Assembly: GCA_013178015.1 (NCBI GenBank)
Contig: JABLXR010000030.1
Span: forward strand, 51,238-115,237
Length of the DNA: 64,000 nt
Direction of reading: 5' to 3'
Source of the DNA: Anaerolineae bacterium
GTDB lineage: Bacteria > Chloroflexota > Anaerolineae > DRVO01
Shown here: in pieces, positions 1,971-56,662 of the stretch
Layout of the letters: the number at the start of each line of letters is the position of its first letter
Position numbering within the stretch: the first letter of the stretch is position 1
Made by a program: the position numbers and the translations under genes
Notes under the pieces: generated by a model
Seen by the model: the letters and a program-made list of their open reading frames with translations, nothing else
Told to the model about the DNA's origin: nothing
Database searches by the model: none

Positions 1971-2160
1971 CTCACATCGAAGCCTATCGCAGCCGCGGCG
2001 TCGGTGTCAATAGGACGGGTAGGGGATTTAGGGCTTTCTCAGAGTTGAGCTAGCGTTGGGCGAGCCGCCATCTGGCGCGGGCCAGGAACCACTGCCAGCC
2101 AGCGACCAGACAGGGAACAGAAGCGATGCAGCGTCCGGATAGCGCCCAGCCTGGCTCCGA

Positions 2161-2290
2161 TAGCCATCTCTGGTGGCTTGCCGCAGGACTGTGAGAAAGC
2201 CCCAGCCGTAGGGGCGAACCTCGTGTTCGCCCGCAGTATCCTCCGGTAGTCATCTCTAGTGGCCTGCCCCAGGACTTTGAGAAAGCCCTA
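2161..2290. repeat. Two ~44-bp imperfect direct repeats (2161-2204 and 2247-2290; tagYcatctctRgtggcYtgccNcaggactKtgagaaagcccYa) flanking a 26-bp palindromic element GTAGGGGCGAACCTCGTGTTCGCCCG (2208-2233)
   Basis: Read directly from sequence. The same 26-mer (1-2 mismatches) recurs twice in inverted orientation at 53769-53794 and 53840-53865. It lies in the divergent intergenic region between the kinase and the FHA regulator. Confidence 0.6.
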
Positions 2291-49272: not shown

Positions 49273-50722
49273 GGTAGAAGTCTTGTGGCTCCGTGCGAGG
49301 ACCGGCCGACTCGAAGCGGGGCTGGCCGGCGCCAGCGACAGCGATCTCGCGGCCGATGCCCACGTCCCAAAACAGGTGAGCGCCCGCGCCCCAGCGGGCG
49401 ACCAGATCTTCGGTAGATCGCCAGGAAGTAGCCCGAGTCCAGCCTGTGAGGGTATCGCCGGGCTCACCCACGCGCCAGATGTGGACCACGTACCACAGGT
49501 CCGGGGCGAGATCGCCCACTCCGGTCCACATCAGGATGAGCTCGCGGGGGACGACCCTGGCACCGCCCCGCGGCGAGAGAGGCTCCAGGGCTCGAGGCTG
49601 GGCCGGCCCGCCCAGGGACAGCAGGGAGGCGGTGGCCGTGGGGGCGGCCGCCAAGGCGGTGGCTCCGGCGGTGGGGACAGCCTCGGCCGCCGCCGCGGTA
49701 GGGGTGGGATCCGGGCCGCCCGACTGCGAGGGCACGGGAACTCTCACTTTCTGGCCCACGCTCAATATGGTGTACTTGGTAAGCCCGGGGTTCGCAGCCA
49801 GGATCTCCTCCAAGGTGGTACCGTACTTGTTGGCCAGATAACCCAGAGTATCGCCCCGCTCGATGGCGTGCTCGATGAACTGGGGCTCGGGGGTGGCAGT
49901 GGGCTCTGGTTCAGGTGCAGCTGAGGCCGTTTCCGCAGTCGGCGTGGGGACAACGATCTTCTGCCCCAGGCTCAGGATGCTGTTGCGGGTGAGCCCGGGG
50001 TTGGCAGCTATGATGTCGCTAACGGTGGTACCGTACTTATCGGCCAGATACAGGAGGTTGTCACCCGTTTCAACGGTGTGTACGAGGGGCTCGGCAACCG
50101 GGAGGGGCTCCTGGTCGGCAGCCTCGCCGGATGCTGAAGCAGGTATGACGATCTCCTGCCCCACCCGCAGGATGGAGCGCTCCGTCAGGCCCGGGTTGGC
50201 AGCTAGGATGTCCTGCACCTCCAAGTCGTACTGGAGGGCGATGGAGCCCAGCACGTCTCCCGATTGAACCACGTGGACCCTAGGCCCGGTCGTGGGGGCA
50301 GGGGTGTCCAGCGGCTCTGGAGTTGGGGTCTGCGTCCCGGTAGGAGAGGACGTGGCCGTAGGGGTAGGGGGGACTGGAGTGGACGTGACCAATCGGACCG
50401 TCCCAGGGGAGGGTGTGGCCGCGTCCACAGCTTGCTGTGCCGTTTCCTTCGCCGGGGGCGAGAGGGCCGCCATGGCCACAGCGGCTGGCTTCCCTGGCGT
50501 CGCGTTCGGAGCGCCGGACGAAGGCTCTGCGCTCCCCGACCTATCGCGCAACCCGGCCAGCACCGCTCCTGCTACCATCGCCAGTGCCACCAGAGCCAGG
50601 GCCGGCTGAAGGTAGCTGGGTGACCGCAGTTCCTGTCCGCACAGGAGGCAGGACCGAGCCTGCTGGGCGACGCGAGCCCCACAACGGGGGCACCGACGAG
50701 GCTCTCGGTTAATGGTTGCCAT
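49259..50722 (-). CDS. LysM-repeat protein with N-terminal zinc ribbon and TM anchor (three LysM domains, Pro/Thr-rich linkers, C-terminal globular domain)
   Basis: N-terminal CPRCG...CLLCG zinc ribbon then TM. Three LysM motifs (VQSGDVLGSIALQY, VETGDNLLYLADKYGTT, IERGDTLGYLANKYGTT). Confidence 0.8.
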   Translation of the reverse strand: MATINREPRRCPRCGARVAQQARSCLLCGQELRSPSYLQPALALVALAMVAGAVLAGLRDRSGSAEPSSGAPNATPGKPAAVAMAALSPPAKETAQQAVDAATPSPGTVRLVTSTPVPPTPTATSSPTGTQTPTPEPLDTPAPTTGPRVHVVQSGDVLGSIALQYDLEVQDILAANPGLTERSILRVGQEIVIPASASGEAADQEPLPVAEPLVHTVETGDNLLYLADKYGTTVSDIIAANPGLTRNSILSLGQKIVVPTPTAETASAAPEPEPTATPEPQFIEHAIERGDTLGYLANKYGTTLEEILAANPGLTKYTILSVGQKVRVPVPSQSGGPDPTPTAAAAEAVPTAGATALAAAPTATASLLSLGGPAQPRALEPLSPRGGARVVPRELILMWTGVGDLAPDLWYVVHIWRVGEPGDTLTGWTRATSWRSTEDLVARWGAGAHLFWDVGIGREIAVAGAGQPRFESAGPRTEPQDFYLGAD

Positions 50723-52442
50723 GGGGATTCCTGCTAGTATGATCCCGCCCGGGCGACAGGCCTAGAACGGCAATGCCCATCACTGCTGCTAGACTAACCC
50801 AATCTGAGGCCAGGCGCAAGGGGGTCTCACCGAAATGGATGGTGACCCGGTGTTCGCCCGCCGGCAGGTCGAGGGCGATGACCCCTAGGGGGCCTGCTGG
50901 GCGGACCGGTGCAGGAACCCCGTCCACGTAAGCCCGCCATCCCGGGTAGTAGTACGTGTGGAAACGAAGCTCCCCCGCCGTCTCCGAGCGCACCCGGACG
51001 ATCTGCACGTGTCCCCCCAGGTGGAGGGGCTCGACCGAGGCGCCCGGTGCGTCTGTCTCCGCCAGAGGTAGCGCCTCTCCGGCCAGGTAGGCGGCAACTT
51101 TGGGCGAATCCTGAGGCATGTGCTGGGTCCAGGCGGTCATGCCTCGCATGTCGGTGTACTCGAGCTCGAACTCCACCGTGCCCACTGGCTGTTCGGCGCG
51201 GGGGTCGGGGGCGGTATGCTGGGGGCGGGCGTAGGGCAGGCTCGCGACCACGACGGCCAGCGCCAGCAGCAATGCGCTCCCCTGCCCCGCTCGATCGGCC
51301 AGGCGGGCACCGGCGATGGCGGCCAGGCCGGCGGCACAGAGCGCAACTATCCCGAGCAGGCGCCAGGGGAACTGCGCCAGCGACAATAGGGACACGGCGC
51401 GCCATATCGCCCCACTGGCTCCGGTCATCAGGAAGGTGTAGGTCACGAGCCCGAGACCGAGCAGCACCGCCGCAGGGCGGAAGCAGCGACTGCGAGTCCC
51501 CAGGGCCAGGCCCGCCAGGGACAGGGCTACGGGGGCGAGGCCCTGCTGGAACGGCATGGTATCTTCAGGGCCAGCCACAGCGTAGCCGTAATCCCACAGT
51601 GGCGACAACAGCTGGCCCGGGTAGACGAAGTGATCGGTGAGGTTGTAGGTGGCCCTGGTCCACTGCTCCTGCCTGATGTAACCGCGCTCGGCCAGCGAGG
51701 GGATGAGGGAGAAGGCTGCCAGAGCGACCCCTAGAGCCCCGGCCGCGATCGGCCCCAGCCACGCTCTCGCCGACGGCAGGCGGCCGGAGGCAGCCAGGGC
51801 GATGATGATGGCGGCTCCCAGGAGAGGGGTGAAGAGCAAGGCGGTGACGTTGTGGGCCGCCAGCAGCAGCCCGTAGGTGGCGGCGGCAGCGGCGATTCGA
51901 CGGCGTGAGGGAGCCGTCGCCAGTGACCAGAAAGCCCACAAAGCCCAGGGGAAGAGGGAGAGGGCCCAGGACTCGGCCAGGGCGGCGCGAACGTAGATGT
52001 CCACGAATCGGTAAGGAGCATAGGTGTAGACGACGGCAGCCACCGCCGCCGCGGCGCCGAACCCTCTCGAATCGGTCGGTGCCTGACGTAGCAGCGCTTC
52101 GGCCAGGAGGAACATGCCCACGCAGGACACCAGGATAGACAGGGCGAAAGCCGCTTTGATGGCAGCGGCGATCCCCAGGCCGGTCAGGTGGAACCCCTCA
52201 GCCACGTAGTAGGCCAGGGGGGAGTAGAAGACGAAGGTGGGGTAACCGTAGCCCAGGGCATGGTCGGGCCCCCAGCGGGGGATGAGTACGCCGTCGGCGA
52301 CGGCCCGGTCGAACTGGACCAGGAAGAACAGGGTATGGGGTCCGTCGTGGGCGCCCAGAAAGTAGCCCGGGGCCAGCAGAGGCCAGGCGGCGAAGACGGC
52401 CAGGATGAGGGCCAGGCCTAGGTAACGGCGGCGCTCGCTCAT
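50709..52442 (-). CDS. Polytopic GT-C-like membrane protein, paralog 1 of 3 (putative envelope glycosyltransferase; PTPS-related/DUF-type)
   Basis: Many TM helices. Conserved N-terminal block shared with paralog 2 (PGYFLGAHDGPHTLFFLVQFDRAVADGVLIPRWGPDHALGYGYPTFVFYSPLAYY). Probable ATG at 52442 overlapping the upstream stop (ATGA). Confidence 0.7.
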   Translation of the reverse strand: MSERRRYLGLALILAVFAAWPLLAPGYFLGAHDGPHTLFFLVQFDRAVADGVLIPRWGPDHALGYGYPTFVFYSPLAYYVAEGFHLTGLGIAAAIKAAFALSILVSCVGMFLLAEALLRQAPTDSRGFGAAAAVAAVVYTYAPYRFVDIYVRAALAESWALSLFPWALWAFWSLATAPSRRRIAAAAATYGLLLAAHNVTALLFTPLLGAAIIIALAASGRLPSARAWLGPIAAGALGVALAAFSLIPSLAERGYIRQEQWTRATYNLTDHFVYPGQLLSPLWDYGYAVAGPEDTMPFQQGLAPVALSLAGLALGTRSRCFRPAAVLLGLGLVTYTFLMTGASGAIWRAVSLLSLAQFPWRLLGIVALCAAGLAAIAGARLADRAGQGSALLLALAVVVASLPYARPQHTAPDPRAEQPVGTVEFELEYTDMRGMTAWTQHMPQDSPKVAAYLAGEALPLAETDAPGASVEPLHLGGHVQIVRVRSETAGELRFHTYYYPGWRAYVDGVPAPVRPAGPLGVIALDLPAGEHRVTIHFGETPLRLASDWVSLAAVMGIAVLGLSPGRDHTSRNPHGNH

Positions 52443-54478
52443 GGCCGCATGGCTCCGGGGCGGCAGAGGATGCGGGCCACCGCGGCCAGGCCGTACGCCA
52501 TCCCCGTGAGCAAGGTCAGACCGGTTCCCAGCCGCCGGACGGGCGTGTCCTCGAATACCAGAAGCAGGACATGGCGGCCTTGGGGCACAGGCACGCTGAT
52601 GAGCCCCAGTTCTCCCTCCGGCACGACCGGGGCCGTGCCGGAGACCTCGCCTGTGTCCTCGTCCAGGATGTAGGCGTTCCAGCCGGGGTGGTAGAAGGTG
52701 TGGAAGCGGATGACCTGAGCGTCGTCTTCGGCCTGGAACCACACCCTCTCGTAGGTGGTACCCATCTCCAGCGAATGCACCGCCAGGCGACCGGTAGCGT
52801 AGGCTTGGACGTAGTCCACCTTGGTGGTGATCTCGATCCCGGCCATGATCTGATCTGCCAGCGGCGACCAGCGGGGGATCTCCTGCACCCAGGCGGTGGA
52901 GCCGGTCATCTCATCGGCGCTCTGTTGGAAGCGCATCAGTCCCTGAAGGGACACGGGTCCCTCAGGTGGGGGCCGGACCTCGCTGTGCAAATAGGGGTAG
53001 ACCGGCAGGATGACCAGCAGGGCCCAGAGCCCGGTGAGGGCCAGGGCGCTGCGATCGGGGTGCCAGCGGGTGAAAGGGCCCGTTCCTAGGAAGGCAAGGC
53101 AGACGATGGTGAGCGCCAGCAGTCGCCAGGGGAACTGAGCGAACCTCACTAGCCCCAGGGCATCCCACACTGGTTCGGAGAGGGGGAGCATCAGGAAGAC
53201 GACGCCGAGGGTGACGGCGCCTAGGTACAGGGCACTCCGGCGCCACGCCTGCGGCAGCCGCGGCCAGTAAAGAAGGCTAAGCGCTGCCAGCGTCAGAGGG
53301 GCCAGGCCCAGCTGGAAGGACATGCCATCGTCCGGTCCCGGGAGGCTCACTCCGAACCCCCAGTCGAGGCGGAAGAGCTGGAAGGGATAGACGAAGTGGT
53401 GGCGATACTCGTAGTAGCCACCGACCCACTGGTCGGTGCGGACGTAAGCGTACTCCAGGAAGGCGGGCAGCCAGAAGATGGCGCTCAGCCCCAACCCCAG
53501 GAGCACGGCGCCGGCAGCAGGCGCCATGGTATGGATGGCGTGACCCAGAACCGAGGGCCAGGACTGGCGGGAGAGCGGCCGCCACGTCGGGGTCGAGCGG
53601 CAGAGGTGCCAGGCTCGGAGCAGAGTGTAGCCGCCCAGGATGGGAGAGAAGAGCAGCGCCACCAGGTTGCTGCTCAGCATCAGCCCGGCGTAGGCTAGCC
53701 CAGCCAGCAGAACCCCCGTGACGTTCGGGAGACGATGGGCTCGTCCCAGATCTGCCTGGGCCCCTGCCGTAGGGGCGAACCTTGTGTTCGCCCGTTTCAA
53801 CGCCATGTTCGCCCGCTTGTGCCTCAAGCGGATGCGTTGCGGGCGAACACAAGGTTCGCCCCTACGGTCGGTGGGCCGGGGTGTGGGTTCGGCCGTATGG
53901 TCGCTGGGGTGGGGTGCCATGGGTGGCGCCGGGGAGCGTTGGCGCAGGCCCGGGTAGAGGCGCCCGAAGGCCCAGAGGCACAGGGGCACAAAGGCCAGGG
54001 CCACCGTCTCTGCCAGGGAAGCCCGCACGTAGAGGTCGGCCAGATGATAGGGAGCGTAAAGGTACAAGAGGGCCCCCAGCAGCGCCCCGGGCGGATGGCT
54101 GTAGAGGCGAAGCCACAGGTAGGCCGTGAGGGCCGAGGCCACCGCTGCCAGGCCGAACACCCCCTTGACGGCCTCTACCAGACCCAGACCAAGCAGATGC
54201 AGGGCCTCGCCCAGGTAGGAGGACAGTGGGCCGTAGATGTTGAAGAAGGGATAGCCGTAGCCGAAGGTGAAGTCTGGCGCCCACCGGGGATAGAGGATGC
54301 CGTCCTGGATGGCGCGGTCGAACTGATGCAGGAAGTAGACGCTGTGGCGGGCGTCCTGGGCGCCCCAGTGGTAGCCGGGCATGAACAGGGGCCCGACGCT
54401 GAATAGGGAGAGGGCCAGGAGGAGTAACACCCAGACCCACTCCGGCACCGCCTCTATCGCGGTCCGATCAGTCCTCAC
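52439..54478 (-). CDS. Polytopic GT-C-like membrane protein, paralog 2 of 3, with ~70-aa lineage-specific insertion
   Basis: N-terminal block PGYHWGAQDARHSVYFLHQFDRAIQDGILYPRWAPDFTFGYGYPFFNIYGPLSSY is homologous to paralog 1. The insertion (…PTDRRGEPCVRPQRIRLRHKRANMALKRANTRFAPTAG…) coincides with the palindromic repeat at 53769-53865. Confidence 0.7.
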   Translation of the reverse strand: MRTDRTAIEAVPEWVWVLLLLALSLFSVGPLFMPGYHWGAQDARHSVYFLHQFDRAIQDGILYPRWAPDFTFGYGYPFFNIYGPLSSYLGEALHLLGLGLVEAVKGVFGLAAVASALTAYLWLRLYSHPPGALLGALLYLYAPYHLADLYVRASLAETVALAFVPLCLWAFGRLYPGLRQRSPAPPMAPHPSDHTAEPTPRPTDRRGEPCVRPQRIRLRHKRANMALKRANTRFAPTAGAQADLGRAHRLPNVTGVLLAGLAYAGLMLSSNLVALLFSPILGGYTLLRAWHLCRSTPTWRPLSRQSWPSVLGHAIHTMAPAAGAVLLGLGLSAIFWLPAFLEYAYVRTDQWVGGYYEYRHHFVYPFQLFRLDWGFGVSLPGPDDGMSFQLGLAPLTLAALSLLYWPRLPQAWRRSALYLGAVTLGVVFLMLPLSEPVWDALGLVRFAQFPWRLLALTIVCLAFLGTGPFTRWHPDRSALALTGLWALLVILPVYPYLHSEVRPPPEGPVSLQGLMRFQQSADEMTGSTAWVQEIPRWSPLADQIMAGIEITTKVDYVQAYATGRLAVHSLEMGTTYERVWFQAEDDAQVIRFHTFYHPGWNAYILDEDTGEVSGTAPVVPEGELGLISVPVPQGRHVLLLVFEDTPVRRLGTGLTLLTGMAYGLAAVARILCRPGAMRP
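53769..53865. repeat. Perfect 26-bp inverted repeat pair (GTAGGGGCGAACCTTGTGTTCGCCCG ... CGGGCGAACACAAGGTTCGCCCCTAC) flanking a 45-bp partly palindromic core; MITE/REP-like element embedded in-frame in a coding sequence
   Basis: Read directly. Same 26-mer family as at 2208-2233. Each arm is itself a small hairpin (GGGCGAAC...GTTCGCCC). Confidence 0.7.
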
Positions 54479-56018
54479 GGCCCAGCTCCACCGCGGTGGT
54501 TCCGTCCGACAGGGTCAGCCGTTCCCCCGTTCCCAGGTCATACAGACCCACTAACACCCGATAGCCCTCCCGAGGGCCATCGAGGTCCACGTGGACGAGA
54601 TGGTCGTCCACCACCACTTCGCCCGGGCGCCAGGACGTGGTCGGGCGGGTGCCGTCCACGGGCCAGGAATCGCGCTGGCCCCACTTGCGATCGGCCTGAT
54701 CCACCACGTGCACGAACACGGTGTAGTTGCGCTCCAGGGGCTGGGTGGCTTGCCAGAACAGACGCAGCCTGGGAGTAGCCCCGTGGCGCAAGGGGCCGTG
54801 GAGCTCGGCTCGTACCAGGAGTATGCGTCCGTCGTCGAAGGCCGCCAGGGGGCGGGCGGCCGGCGTCACTGGGCTCAGGGGGACATCCAGAAAGGGCAGG
54901 GCCAGAAGGAGGGCGAGGAGAGCCAGGGCCCCTCCGGAGAGCGCCTGGGTGGGCAAGAGCTGGACCACGGGCGGGGCGGAGGCCCACAGGAGCACGAAGG
55001 AAGCAAGGGCCACCAACTGCCAGGGACCGTCCAGGGCCCATGCGAGGCGCCCTTCCCACAGCGGGCGCGCTAACTCGGTGGACAGGAGCAGCAGCACGAC
55101 AGCGACCGCCCCCACCACGACACACCGGGCGCGGAGACCGGGCTGCACGAGCAGGCACGCGGCGGCGAAGAGCCCGACGGGGAGGAGGCCCAGTGTCAGG
55201 GGAGCGGGTACGCCCGGACCCCAGGGGGCGCTGTGCGCGGCGTAGCCGGCCGTGTGCCCGAGCCACTGGTAAGGCCAACTGAACTGGCGGAACGATGCCG
55301 ACGCAGTGCCCGGTGCGGCGATTAGACCAGCAGTTCCGGTCAGGAGCAGCCCGACCAGTGGCCGCAGGTTCACGCGGCGGTGGGCTACCAGGGCGACGGC
55401 TGCCAGAACCGCCCCGGCGATAAGGGCGAACCCGGGATGGGCTAGCCCCAGCGCCAGGCCCGGCAGTATCGGGGCCACCGAGCGCCACGAGGTTGCGCCC
55501 CCAGGCGCTGGGTAAGCCAAAGCCAGCGCCAGCCAGGGCAGCATCCCGAGGGCGAGGGACCCCCCTGGCCAACCGCGCACGTAGATGGACGCCAGTACCA
55601 TAGGCGAGCCGGCCCAGGCCAAAGCTAACCCAAGCGCAATGCTGCCCCCGGTCGCACCGCTCCGGTGGCCTCGGAAGAGGGCGAGCGCTCCGCCGACGGC
55701 CAAGAGCACGGCCAGGGCGTAGACCGCCTTCACGGCGCTCGGTCCGTCGGCGCCCATCAGGCGGAAGAGGAATGCCAGGCAGTAGGACAGGACGCCGTCG
55801 CCACCTGCAGAGCCAGTTAGGGAGGATGCGGGCAAGCCGTCAATGGGCCGGCCAGCGGCTTCCCAGGCGTAGAGGGTGTACACCGGCTGGAAGCCGGAGT
55901 GGGGCTGGAAGTACCCGGGGTAGCCCAGGGGTGCCAGCAGGAAGCCACTGAGCAGGAGCAGGGAGGCGGCGACGCGCCATCCCTGGCCCGACGCCCTGCG
56001 GTCCGCGGTTGCGCTCAC
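54468..56018 (-). CDS. Polytopic GT-C-like membrane protein, paralog 3 of 3 (more divergent)
   Basis: TM-rich. Shares the GYPGYF...Y..W N-terminal theme. Start chosen as GTG at 56018 to avoid overlap with the HD gene; the ORF is open to 56231. Confidence 0.6.
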   Translation of the reverse strand: MSATADRRASGQGWRVAASLLLLSGFLLAPLGYPGYFQPHSGFQPVYTLYAWEAAGRPIDGLPASSLTGSAGGDGVLSYCLAFLFRLMGADGPSAVKAVYALAVLLAVGGALALFRGHRSGATGGSIALGLALAWAGSPMVLASIYVRGWPGGSLALGMLPWLALALAYPAPGGATSWRSVAPILPGLALGLAHPGFALIAGAVLAAVALVAHRRVNLRPLVGLLLTGTAGLIAAPGTASASFRQFSWPYQWLGHTAGYAAHSAPWGPGVPAPLTLGLLPVGLFAAACLLVQPGLRARCVVVGAVAVVLLLLSTELARPLWEGRLAWALDGPWQLVALASFVLLWASAPPVVQLLPTQALSGGALALLALLLALPFLDVPLSPVTPAARPLAAFDDGRILLVRAELHGPLRHGATPRLRLFWQATQPLERNYTVFVHVVDQADRKWGQRDSWPVDGTRPTTSWRPGEVVVDDHLVHVDLDGPREGYRVLVGLYDLGTGERLTLSDGTTAVELGRED

Positions 56019-56074
56019 GGCCCAGACCGGCGACAGGCGTGGGCAGGAGACGCCAGAGTGTCCAAGCAGGCAGC

Positions 56075-56662
56075 CTAGCCGGGCTCGCCCGCCAGGCCCA
56101 GATCGTCGGCGATGCCCTGCATAGCCTCGAGCACGACGGCTATGTGCTCGTTGAGTTCCACCCCCAGCTCGGCAGCGCCTTGCTCGATGTCCTGCCGGTT
56201 GATGGCGGCAGCGAAGGCTTTGTCCTTCCACTTGTTGCGCACGGACTTCACCTTGACGTCCATGATGGACTTAGAGGGGCGCACCAGGGCCACGGCCGAG
56301 ATGAGCCCGGTAAGCTCGTCCACGGCGAAGAGGGCCTTGCGTAGCAGGGTGTCCCGGGGAACGCCAGCGTACTGAGCGTGGGAGAGGACATCCTGGACGA
56401 CCTCCTCCGGGTAGCCGCGTTCGCGCAGGATGCGGGCCCCGGCGAAGCAGTGCCACCTTTCCTGCGGCAGGTCGCCGCCCATCTCCGGGTGCTGCTCGAA
56501 GTCGAAGTCGTGGACCAGGCCGATAGCGCCCCAGTATTCCTCGTCCTCGCCGAACCGGCGAGCGTAAGCGCGCATAGCTGCCTCCACGGCGAGCATGTGC
56601 CGGCGCAGGCTAAGGCTTTGAATGTGCTCGGTCACCAGGCTCCAGGCCTCGTCACGGGTCAT
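56075..56662 (-). CDS. HD-domain metal-dependent phosphohydrolase
   Basis: H...HD motif (LRRHMLAVEAAM...GLVHDFDF) and downstream conserved His/Asp (HCFAGARIL, AVDEL). Confidence 0.8.
   Translation of the reverse strand: MTRDEAWSLVTEHIQSLSLRRHMLAVEAAMRAYARRFGEDEEYWGAIGLVHDFDFEQHPEMGGDLPQERWHCFAGARILRERGYPEEVVQDVLSHAQYAGVPRDTLLRKALFAVDELTGLISAVALVRPSKSIMDVKVKSVRNKWKDKAFAAAINRQDIEQGAAELGVELNEHIAVVLEAMQGIADDLGLAGEPG

Follow-up and report, generated by a model that had tools for sequence, protein, structure and literature searches.

In the window, by which we mean the whole 64-kb stretch of Anaerolineae DNA analysed here, the spacer between a kinase gene and a gene for an FHA regulator at 2.2 kb carries a 26-nt palindrome bracketed by direct repeats, and nearly the same palindrome returns twice, inverted, inside a coding region at 53.8 kb. 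This arrangement raises the questions of what kind of element the palindrome is, how it came to lie at two such sites, and whether it serves the genes around it. The initial annotation had offered several answers, among them a small dispersed family of repeats and a regulatory role in the divergent promoter region, and these were examined by sequence comparison within the window, with relatives of the organism, and across bacterial genomes and metagenomes.

Anatomy of the Palindrome and Its Copies in the Window

The palindrome, GTAGGGGCGAACCTCGTGTTCGCCCG, was located at 2208-2233 on the plus strand, where it had been annotated. It consists of an unpaired GTAG head (2208-2211), an 8-bp stem of G and C (GGGCGAAC/GTTCGCCC; 2212-2219 and 2225-2232), a 5-nt loop reading CTCGT (2220-2224), and a trailing G (2233), in agreement with the 8-bp hairpin described before. 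Two further copies, each with one mismatch, were found at 53769-53794 on the plus strand and 53840-53865 on the minus strand; their loop reads CTTGT, which gives CTYGT for the three, and each again carries the unpaired GTAG (53769-53772, and 53862-53865 read on the minus strand). The inverted pair reported inside a coding region at 53769-53865 was thereby confirmed, the region being a 679-aa ORF. Folding, which the initial annotation had suggested for the transcript, was carried out on single-stranded DNA and yielded -9.8 kcal/mol (z -3.3) for the single copy and -53.6 kcal/mol (z -13.7) for the 53.8-kb pair. With up to three mismatches allowed, the 26-mer has three matches in the 64-kb window, against 0.00 expected from 100 shuffles, and a scan of the window for GTAG-headed hairpins revealed no member beyond these three.

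The 26-mer (REP string GTAGGGGCGAACCTYGTGTTCGCCC) is a canonical GTAG-tagged REP and belongs, as an unexceptional case, to a known class of small mobile repeats in bacteria. The tally of REP copies comes to three in the window, one intergenic and two intragenic, and two on a metagenome contig (L135) that is probably from the same organism. The earlier description of a dispersed palindromic family, REP- or MITE-like, proved apt in both words, as the element is a GTAG REP present in many genomes and a true MITE surrounds the 2.2-kb copy; the number of copies hints faintly at the expansion within this genome that had also been proposed. At the 2.2-kb locus, a second metagenome contig (L134), 99.2% identical over 1554 nt, has the loop CTTGT (L134:1456-1480) where the window has CTCGT (2208-2232), the two being alleles of the REP loop in the population.

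Occurrence of the Element in Other Genomes

One genome per species was scanned with the pattern GTAGGGGCGAAC-N5-GTTCGCCC, in which the loop was left free. Loop aside, the identical 25-mer was found at at least 120 loci in about 80 assemblies, which among the matches listed represent roughly 15-18 phylum-level groups: Armatimonadota/Abditibacteriota, Desulfobacterota, Deinococcota, Chloroflexota, Planctomycetota, Acidobacteriota, Nitrospirota, Bacteroidota (including the isolate Tannerella forsythia ATCC 43037), Gammaproteobacteria, Cyanobacteria, Firmicutes, and several candidate phyla. By our own arithmetic, with 20 fixed bases and ~1.2e12 positions, about one match was expected by chance. 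Among the same matches, the flanks are unrelated, the copies occur as singletons or as head-out dimers with variable spacers, and several other metagenome-assembled genomes (MAGs) hold two to five separate loci each.

Although the loop had been left free in the scan, it read CTTGT in 122 of the copies listed, CTCGT in 16, and CTGGT in 7, and its orientation with respect to GTAG never varied. The partner arms, which had not been selected for pairing, showed 14 compensatory double changes at four stem positions, besides six wobble changes and 23 broken pairs, the last mostly in decayed arms. The GTAG head was kept in nearly all related copies, with GTGG or GCAG in a few decayed arms, and full GTAG...CTAC ("double-foot") palindromes were present at L085, L099, and L120. 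Taken together, the dispersal, the fixed loop and head, and the compensatory changes indicate that selection maintains a hairpin that is strand-specific and whose head and loop are recognised.

These data leave practically no room for the view that the three copies resemble each other by accident, or stem from duplication within the locus alone, and belong to no wider family. The 64 kb do hold only three copies, and two of them are adjacent, but none was expected in the shuffled sequences, the identical 25-mer stands at the many loci described above, and more copies occur at another locus in the same metagenome (L135). The initial annotation had named three copies alone, with no conservation of the flanking structure, as the sign of coincidence or local duplication; what was found is a composite that recurs at that other locus with the same junctions.

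Several arrangements in other genomes were observed in the course of the scan. The 3' half of the REP, GTGTTCGCCC, together with the next ~10 nt, is repeated in tandem, up to at least four times, downstream of an intact REP in unrelated genomes (L001:2993-3040, L005:362-400, L013:5636-5690, and L089:1888-1960). The half-copy GTTCGCCCG of the window is the same in miniature, which suggests slippage or re-initiation at the hairpin. Reiteration of the REP with adjacent DNA also occurs in L001, L005, L013, L082, and L089. In Desulfobacterota MAGs (L006, L011, L045, L084, L097, L100, L105, and L108), REP dimers form the centre of a longer palindrome with arms of approximately ATACCAATTCGCAATCAAA..., a second kind of REP-in-MITE-like composite that is comparable to the Anabaena GTAG-15 case (PMC3733652). 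Two REP copies of the bacterial type were also seen in a contig of an Asgard archaeon MAG (L023; JAIWHJ010000013.1, labelled Promethearchaeota archaeon, coverage 0.33), which may be bacterial DNA binned in error and not a true archaeal case.

An Inserted Block in the Kinase-FHA Spacer

The neighbours of the 2.2-kb REP are as first annotated, with the REP in a divergent promoter region between them. On the left lies a Pkinase (Ser/Thr kinase) ORF on the minus strand, whose start is probably the GTG at 1944-1946, judging from the gene call in a relative (L129); on the right lies an ORF with FHA and Trans_reg_C domains, an OmpR-type winged-helix regulator, starting with the ATG at 2433. The orthologous kinase-FHA pairs of five relatives (L129-L133) were used for comparison, whose FHA proteins are 94% (L129) or ~71% (L130-L133) identical to that of the window. 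As had been proposed in the initial annotation, their intergenic regions were aligned with that of the window. The relatives' spacers measure 170-236 nt, against ~486 nt in the window, and the sequence on either side of 2019-2290 aligns well with all five, while the 272-nt block at 2019-2290 (plus strand) has no counterpart in any of them. The insertion thus accounts for the unusually long spacer. The block is made up of a MITE composite, described below, and 10 nt at its left edge, GTAGGGGATT (2019-2028), which stand between the conserved flank and the left inverted repeat of the MITE and may be what is left of a REP head or else a partial second copy of TAGGGCTTT, with which the inverted repeat starts. 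No recognisable target duplication was found at the edges of the window composite (TAGGGGATT versus TGTACGGAA).

Two other features of the locus were observed. A short-read assembly of the same organism (L121, the Logan contig of SRR6186653, corresponding to the window from 2263 onward) ends 30 nt past the REP, within the second direct repeat. This end is consistent with a repeat breaking the assembly graph, and the block probably explains why the assembly breaks there. Further, an inverted repeat, TTGTCCCG-N12-CGGGACAA (2379-2386 and 2399-2406), lies ~30 nt upstream of the start codon of the FHA/OmpR-type regulator, outside the 272-nt block, and, in contrast to the remaining spacer, has been kept in the orthologous spacers of L129-L132. 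For the kinase/FHA pair, it is a candidate operator or a candidate hairpin of the 5' leader.

The Direct Repeats as Ends of a MITE

The direct repeats around the REP, initially given as ~44 bp with ~85% identity, do exist, with a length of 48 nt and an identity of 88%; they occupy 2155-2202 and 2241-2288 and lie 86 nt apart from start to start. Their last 17 nt recur inverted, as a partial third copy at 2029-2045 that the initial annotation had missed. A metagenome scan with a pattern taken from the repeats returned three contigs (L134, L135, and L136), all of one JGI metagenome. L134 is the 2.2-kb locus itself and, being 99.2% identical to the window there, shows that the organism was present in that sample; L135 and L136, which share the metagenome with it, are probably from the same organism as well.

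A stand-alone element of 174 nt was found on L136 (1561-1734). It has 17-nt terminal inverted repeats, TAGGGCTTTCTCAAAGT and ACTTTGAGAAAGCCCTA, carries no REP, and is flanked by a perfect 9-bp target duplication, AGTGCCCGG. The window sequence 2029-2202 is 90% identical to L136:1561-1732, and its left terminal inverted repeat, TAGGGCTTTCTCAGAGT (2029-2045, plus strand), is the same end as L136:1561-1577. The first direct repeat (2155-2202, plus strand) is accordingly a first copy of the MITE right end, in which the inverted-repeat copy ACTGTGAGAAAGCCCCA extends to 2204, and the second (2241-2288, plus strand) is the duplicated right end, with the terminal inverted repeat ACTTTGAGAAAGCCCTA at 2274-2290 (MITE end string TAGGGCTTTCTCARAGT). 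The order of the module in the window is therefore right end, CAGCC, REP, CAGTATC, and right end. At a different locus, L135 (784-1126) carries the same MITE body followed by two units of [right end - GCC - REP - CAGTATT] and a final right end; the 9-nt flanks of this composite, CACCTCGGT and GACCTAGGT, are identical at seven of nine positions. The 86-nt module (right end + GCC + REP + CAGTAT) thus occurs once in the window and twice in L135.

These comparisons across copies identify the carrier at 2.2 kb as a genuine MITE of ~175 nt with 17-nt terminal inverted repeats and without an ORF. The REP adjoins its right end, 3-5 nt beyond it, and that end is duplicated. As the stand-alone MITE of L136 is without a REP, the REP does not belong to the MITE itself, and the occurrence of the composite at at least two loci with the same junctions suggests that it moved as one unit. 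Of the two readings first proposed for the direct repeats, membership of a larger composite therefore stood, as they are two MITE right ends, and target duplication did not. When the 272-nt block without its REP was compared by BLAST with the window and every fetched locus, no further copy came up, and blastn of the MITE against plasmids gave no match. The MITE end, GGGCTTTCTCA, may resemble the ends of the IS903 group (GGCTTTGTTGA, with 9-bp duplication).

The hairpin and its 48-nt repeats could also be read as a host regulatory module of the divergent kinase and FHA-OmpR promoter, for example as operator sites for a winged-helix regulator. OmpR-type regulators often bind direct repeats, the site lies between divergently transcribed signalling genes, and ACTNTGAGAAAGCCC is found at three places in the spacer, where 0.42 would be expected. 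However, all five orthologous spacers do without the 272-nt block, even that of the relative whose FHA protein is 94% identical; the repeats form the termini of a MITE, which is also present at unrelated loci, once with a target duplication; and the conserved TTGTCCCG-N12-CGGGACAA (2379-2406) lies outside the block. Such a module thus appears very improbable. The regulatory role that had been deduced from the position in a divergent promoter region found no support, given the absence of the block from the five orthologues and of any promoter- or terminator-like site in a search of 1900-2500.

Two candidate identities of the direct repeats were rejected on the structure itself, namely target duplications and operators, as the repeats are two copies of the MITE terminus with the REP between them.

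A REP Dimer within a Membrane Protein Gene

The 679-aa ORF that holds the 53.8-kb pair is continuous (52439-54478, minus strand) and is given by NCBI as one CDS (HPY83_12570) of an Anaerolineae MAG. The pair forms a head-out (HH), REPIN-like dimer (53769-53865) with arms of 26 nt each and a spacer of 45 nt, which holds an extra copy of the REP 3' half, GTTCGCCCG, at 53806-53814; it folds into a single long hairpin, as REPINs do. Around the dimer, an in-frame insertion of ~210 nt (65-73 codons; 53731-53950, minus strand, with approximate boundaries) was recognised in this GT39/PTPS-related membrane-protein gene. In a protein alignment, 11 homologues (594-665 aa, the closest 81% identical) are without 65-73 residues at this site, and the in-frame ~210-nt block is likewise absent from the DNA of three relatives. 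No REP was found in the ~60 kb of relatives' loci fetched for this comparison and for that of the kinase-FHA spacer. The insert also has a possible decayed third REP unit at ~53882-53907 (18 of 26 positions, by eye).

The inserted segment is hydrophilic, with a mean Kyte-Doolittle value of -1.17, and is flanked by two hydrophobic segments; the loop that it occupies already varies in length among the homologues. Its peptide, ...RRGEPCVRP...ANTRFAPT..., is the REP read in two of its stop-free frames, which explains this otherwise odd stretch. The REP cluster is tolerated in frame in a membrane protein.

The gene is the middle one of three tandem paralogues, all on the minus strand (50709-52742, 52439-54478, and 54468-56231), that encode large GT39/PTPS-related-like membrane proteins. 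All three have the same N-terminal motif, PGY..GAHD...FD...DG..YPRW.PD, and the REP cluster is present in the middle gene only. Their maximal ORFs overlap, and the true starts should therefore lie further downstream.

The two sites together bear on whether the hairpins are RNA elements, such as a terminator, a stabiliser of mRNA 3' ends, or an RNase site, kept for that function and not as mobile DNA; some REPs have been shown to play such roles. The hairpins are stable, some copies tolerate G-T pairs (the six wobble changes above), and many REPs are transcribed and situated downstream of genes, as suggested in PMC3733652. However, the 2.2-kb copy lies between divergent genes and not in a 3' untranslated region, the 53.8-kb pair stands within coding sequence, and neither site is followed by a T-run, the 2.2-kb hairpin being followed by CAGTATCC. 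In addition, the unpaired GTAG head and the loop sequence are both conserved across phyla, which fits recognition by a protein better than simple hairpin stability. We regard a role kept at the RNA level, a reading that would in any case be compatible with mobility, as improbable.

A search of the whole window against Rfam at gathering thresholds, and of 1900-2500 at permissive thresholds, gave chance-level matches to eukaryotic families only. A Rho-independent terminator was considered on its own account and rejected, since there is no T-run and 1900-2500 holds no terminator-like site.

A further possibility is that the REP is a mere passenger of the MITE in this organism, spread by a DDE transposase and captured once, with no involvement of RayT. 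Two of the three REP-bearing loci known for the organism are MITE composites with the same junctions (GCCCYA-GCC-GTAG...CCCG-CAGTAT), and eight of the nine bases 5' of GTAG in the left arm at 53.8 kb are shared with the MITE-linked copy (GCCCCTGCC versus CCCCAGCC), so this arm could have been copied from a MITE-borne REP. Against this, the 53.8-kb cluster has neither MITE body nor MITE inverted repeats, its head-out dimer is typical of RayT-linked REPINs, and the stand-alone MITE lacks a REP. We therefore consider the passenger status unlikely, and prefer a REP with a mobility of its own that is tied to RayT.

Association with RayT Transposases

A scan of all ORFs of at least 100 aa in the 64-kb window for the HUH...YxxxNP motif identified no RayT. 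The same scan over the 120 REP loci listed detected a RayT-like ORF at four of them, directly flanked by the REP in L036 only, and clustering of the ORFs of at least 100 aa from these loci yielded ubiquitous families only, such as ABC ATPases and kinases. In L036, a REP stands 6 nt upstream of the RayT-like ORF, an in-frame REP dimer follows right after the HUH motif (L036:843-949), and another GTAG hairpin lies past the stop codon. The RayT gene of L122 has one dimer 63 nt upstream and another inside it (L122:10230-10336), and the MAG to which it belongs has further dispersed dimers on other contigs (L006, L100, and L108). As in L036 and L122, a REP in frame within a RayT gene was confirmed by DNA in L123 (3363-3514).

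The RayT-like protein of L036, with the insert removed, was used as a query and retrieved 1373 homologues, many of which bear the JGI name "REP element-mobilizing transposase RayT". In most of the best 120 of the 1373, REP-coded peptides stand right after MPNHFH-x-I-x-x-I. Where the peptide is RRGEPCVRP...GEHKVRPY, it corresponds exactly to the present REP, read in two frames; stem variants are represented by RRGESCIRP, GDHKDRPY, VGAGLVPAP...TTRVAPT, and VGADLRVCP, the last in up to eight tandem units (P0173). Among these best 120, the inserts use two reading frames (VGA... or RRGE...) and range from none to ~140 residues. The scale of this in-frame insertion is striking, although the feature itself was already described in PMC6006769. 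The best NCBIfam match of the RayT homologue is the REP-associated tyrosine transposase, at 74 bits and so below the equivalog cut-off of 80, with IS200 at 18 bits; the sole match in the PDB is E. coli TnpA-REP (4ER8). The RayTs of L036 and L122 would belong to subclass 2.4, judging from features that PMC6006769 calls unique to it rather than from a tree.

Discussion

The most probable explanation, to which we assign a probability of roughly 0.85, is that the 26-mer is a REP of the GTAG superfamily, of the type with GGG/CCC at the stem bottom that accompanies group 4 (subclass 2.4) RayTs, with the 2.2-kb copy residing in a MITE composite and the 53.8-kb cluster in an in-frame insert. It builds on what was directly observed: the anatomy of the element, the strand-specific conservation of head and loop, the compensatory changes, presence and absence at both loci, the dispersal of the 25-mer, and the association with RayT elsewhere. 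In the proposed mechanism, the hairpins would form on single-stranded DNA, where a RayT (TnpA-REP, an HUH-tyrosine transposase) encoded elsewhere in the genome would recognise the GTAG foot, the stem, and the loop. Through its cutting and rejoining, copies of single REPs and, more than these, of inverted pairs (REPINs) would reach new sites, with no duplication of the target. Since the 64-kb window encodes no RayT, we infer both such an enzyme in this genome and the mobilisation of the window copies by it.

The REP at 2.2 kb most likely arrived not alone but with the MITE, presumably moved by a DDE transposase; the 86-nt unit of MITE end and REP would have been reiterated in tandem, and the composite appears to have moved in one piece. 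The 53.8-kb cluster would have landed in a variable hydrophilic loop of the membrane protein, surviving there because the reading frame was kept, with ~70 residues added.

A bolder combined reading takes the 2.2-kb structure as a working chimera, that is, a DDE-type MITE that captured a RayT-type REP at its right end, amplifies the 86-nt module in tandem, and transposes as a unit, and at the same time takes the identity of the 25-mer in ~80 genomes to imply either frequent cross-phylum transfer of group-4 RayTs with their REPs or an unusually rigid protein-DNA recognition code. As a whole we hold this to be doubtful, though less so than the passenger status considered above. If true, REPs would gain through the chimera a further path of dispersal that does not depend on RayT, and the MITE would acquire a strong hairpin.

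Comparison with Known Systems

The GTAG-tagged REP superfamily was defined by Di Nocera, De Gregorio & Rocco (2013; PMC3733652), who described HH dimers, intragenic in-frame REPs, clusters that reiterate REPs with flanking DNA, and some REPs embedded in other repeats. Members of the superfamily are palindromes of 20-40 bp with GT[AG]G at the 5' foot, and stand in many dispersed, mostly extragenic copies per genome. The present element shares with it the unpaired 5' GTAG tag directly followed by a G+C-rich stem of 6-13 bp and a short loop, the occasional in-frame intragenic copies, and the clusters with reiterated flanking DNA. As in that superfamily and in the REPINs of Bertels & Rainey (2011), its copies occur as singletons and as HH dimers with 20-100-bp spacers that form a single long hairpin. 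It differs in its low number of copies for a classical family (three in the window) and in that a REP embedded in a DDE-type MITE with target duplication is not among the REP associations described in PMC3733652. The exact REP sequence was not found in the text or supplements of that paper, nor in the searchable literature, and a literature search for the REP-coded peptides returned no paper.

Among RayT-linked systems, the REPs of TnpA-Y1 subclass 2.4 are characterised by a stem bottom of three G-C pairs and also exist in "double-foot" forms, and in-frame REPs inside tnpA-REP, between HuH and Y, were called unique to this subclass, which is patchily distributed over many phyla (Quentin et al. 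2018; PMC6006769). Group 4 RAYTs are common in Cyanobacteria, Chlorobia, and Caldilineae, and are linked to low-copy repeats, the flanking 16-mer occurring ~14 times (Bertels et al. 2017; PMC5581495). The present REP is likewise of the "long canonical" kind with three G-C pairs at the stem bottom (GGGCGAAC...GTTCGCCC) and double-foot forms, and is patchily spread over many phyla, including Chloroflexi-related classes. It departs from these systems in that the 64-kb window holds no RayT, the in-frame REPs in RayT genes being seen in other genomes (L036, L122, and L123).

The in-frame insert at 53.8 kb resembles the Rickettsia palindromic elements (RPE, cited in PMC3733652) and other intragenic REPs, as a palindromic mobile repeat that adds a peptide and leaves the ORF intact. 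In contrast to RPE, its sequence is unrelated, the host phylum is another one, and the insert is a GTAG REP cluster in the loop of a predicted membrane glycosyltransferase-like protein. The carrier at 2029-2290 resembles bacterial MITEs derived from DDE insertion sequences in its 17-nt terminal inverted repeats and lack of coding capacity; in contrast to these, the window copy shows no target duplication, and its right end is present twice, on either side of a REP.

No new mechanism is opened by these findings, as the main features were published between 2013 and 2018; only in the MITE-REP chimera, and in a 25-mer that is identical across phyla, do they go somewhat past published descriptions. 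The locus adds to the class of group-4 RayT REPs an example from the Anaerolineae with clean empty sites in close relatives, and provides a case in which a REP is nested at a MITE end and the junction is reiterated in tandem.
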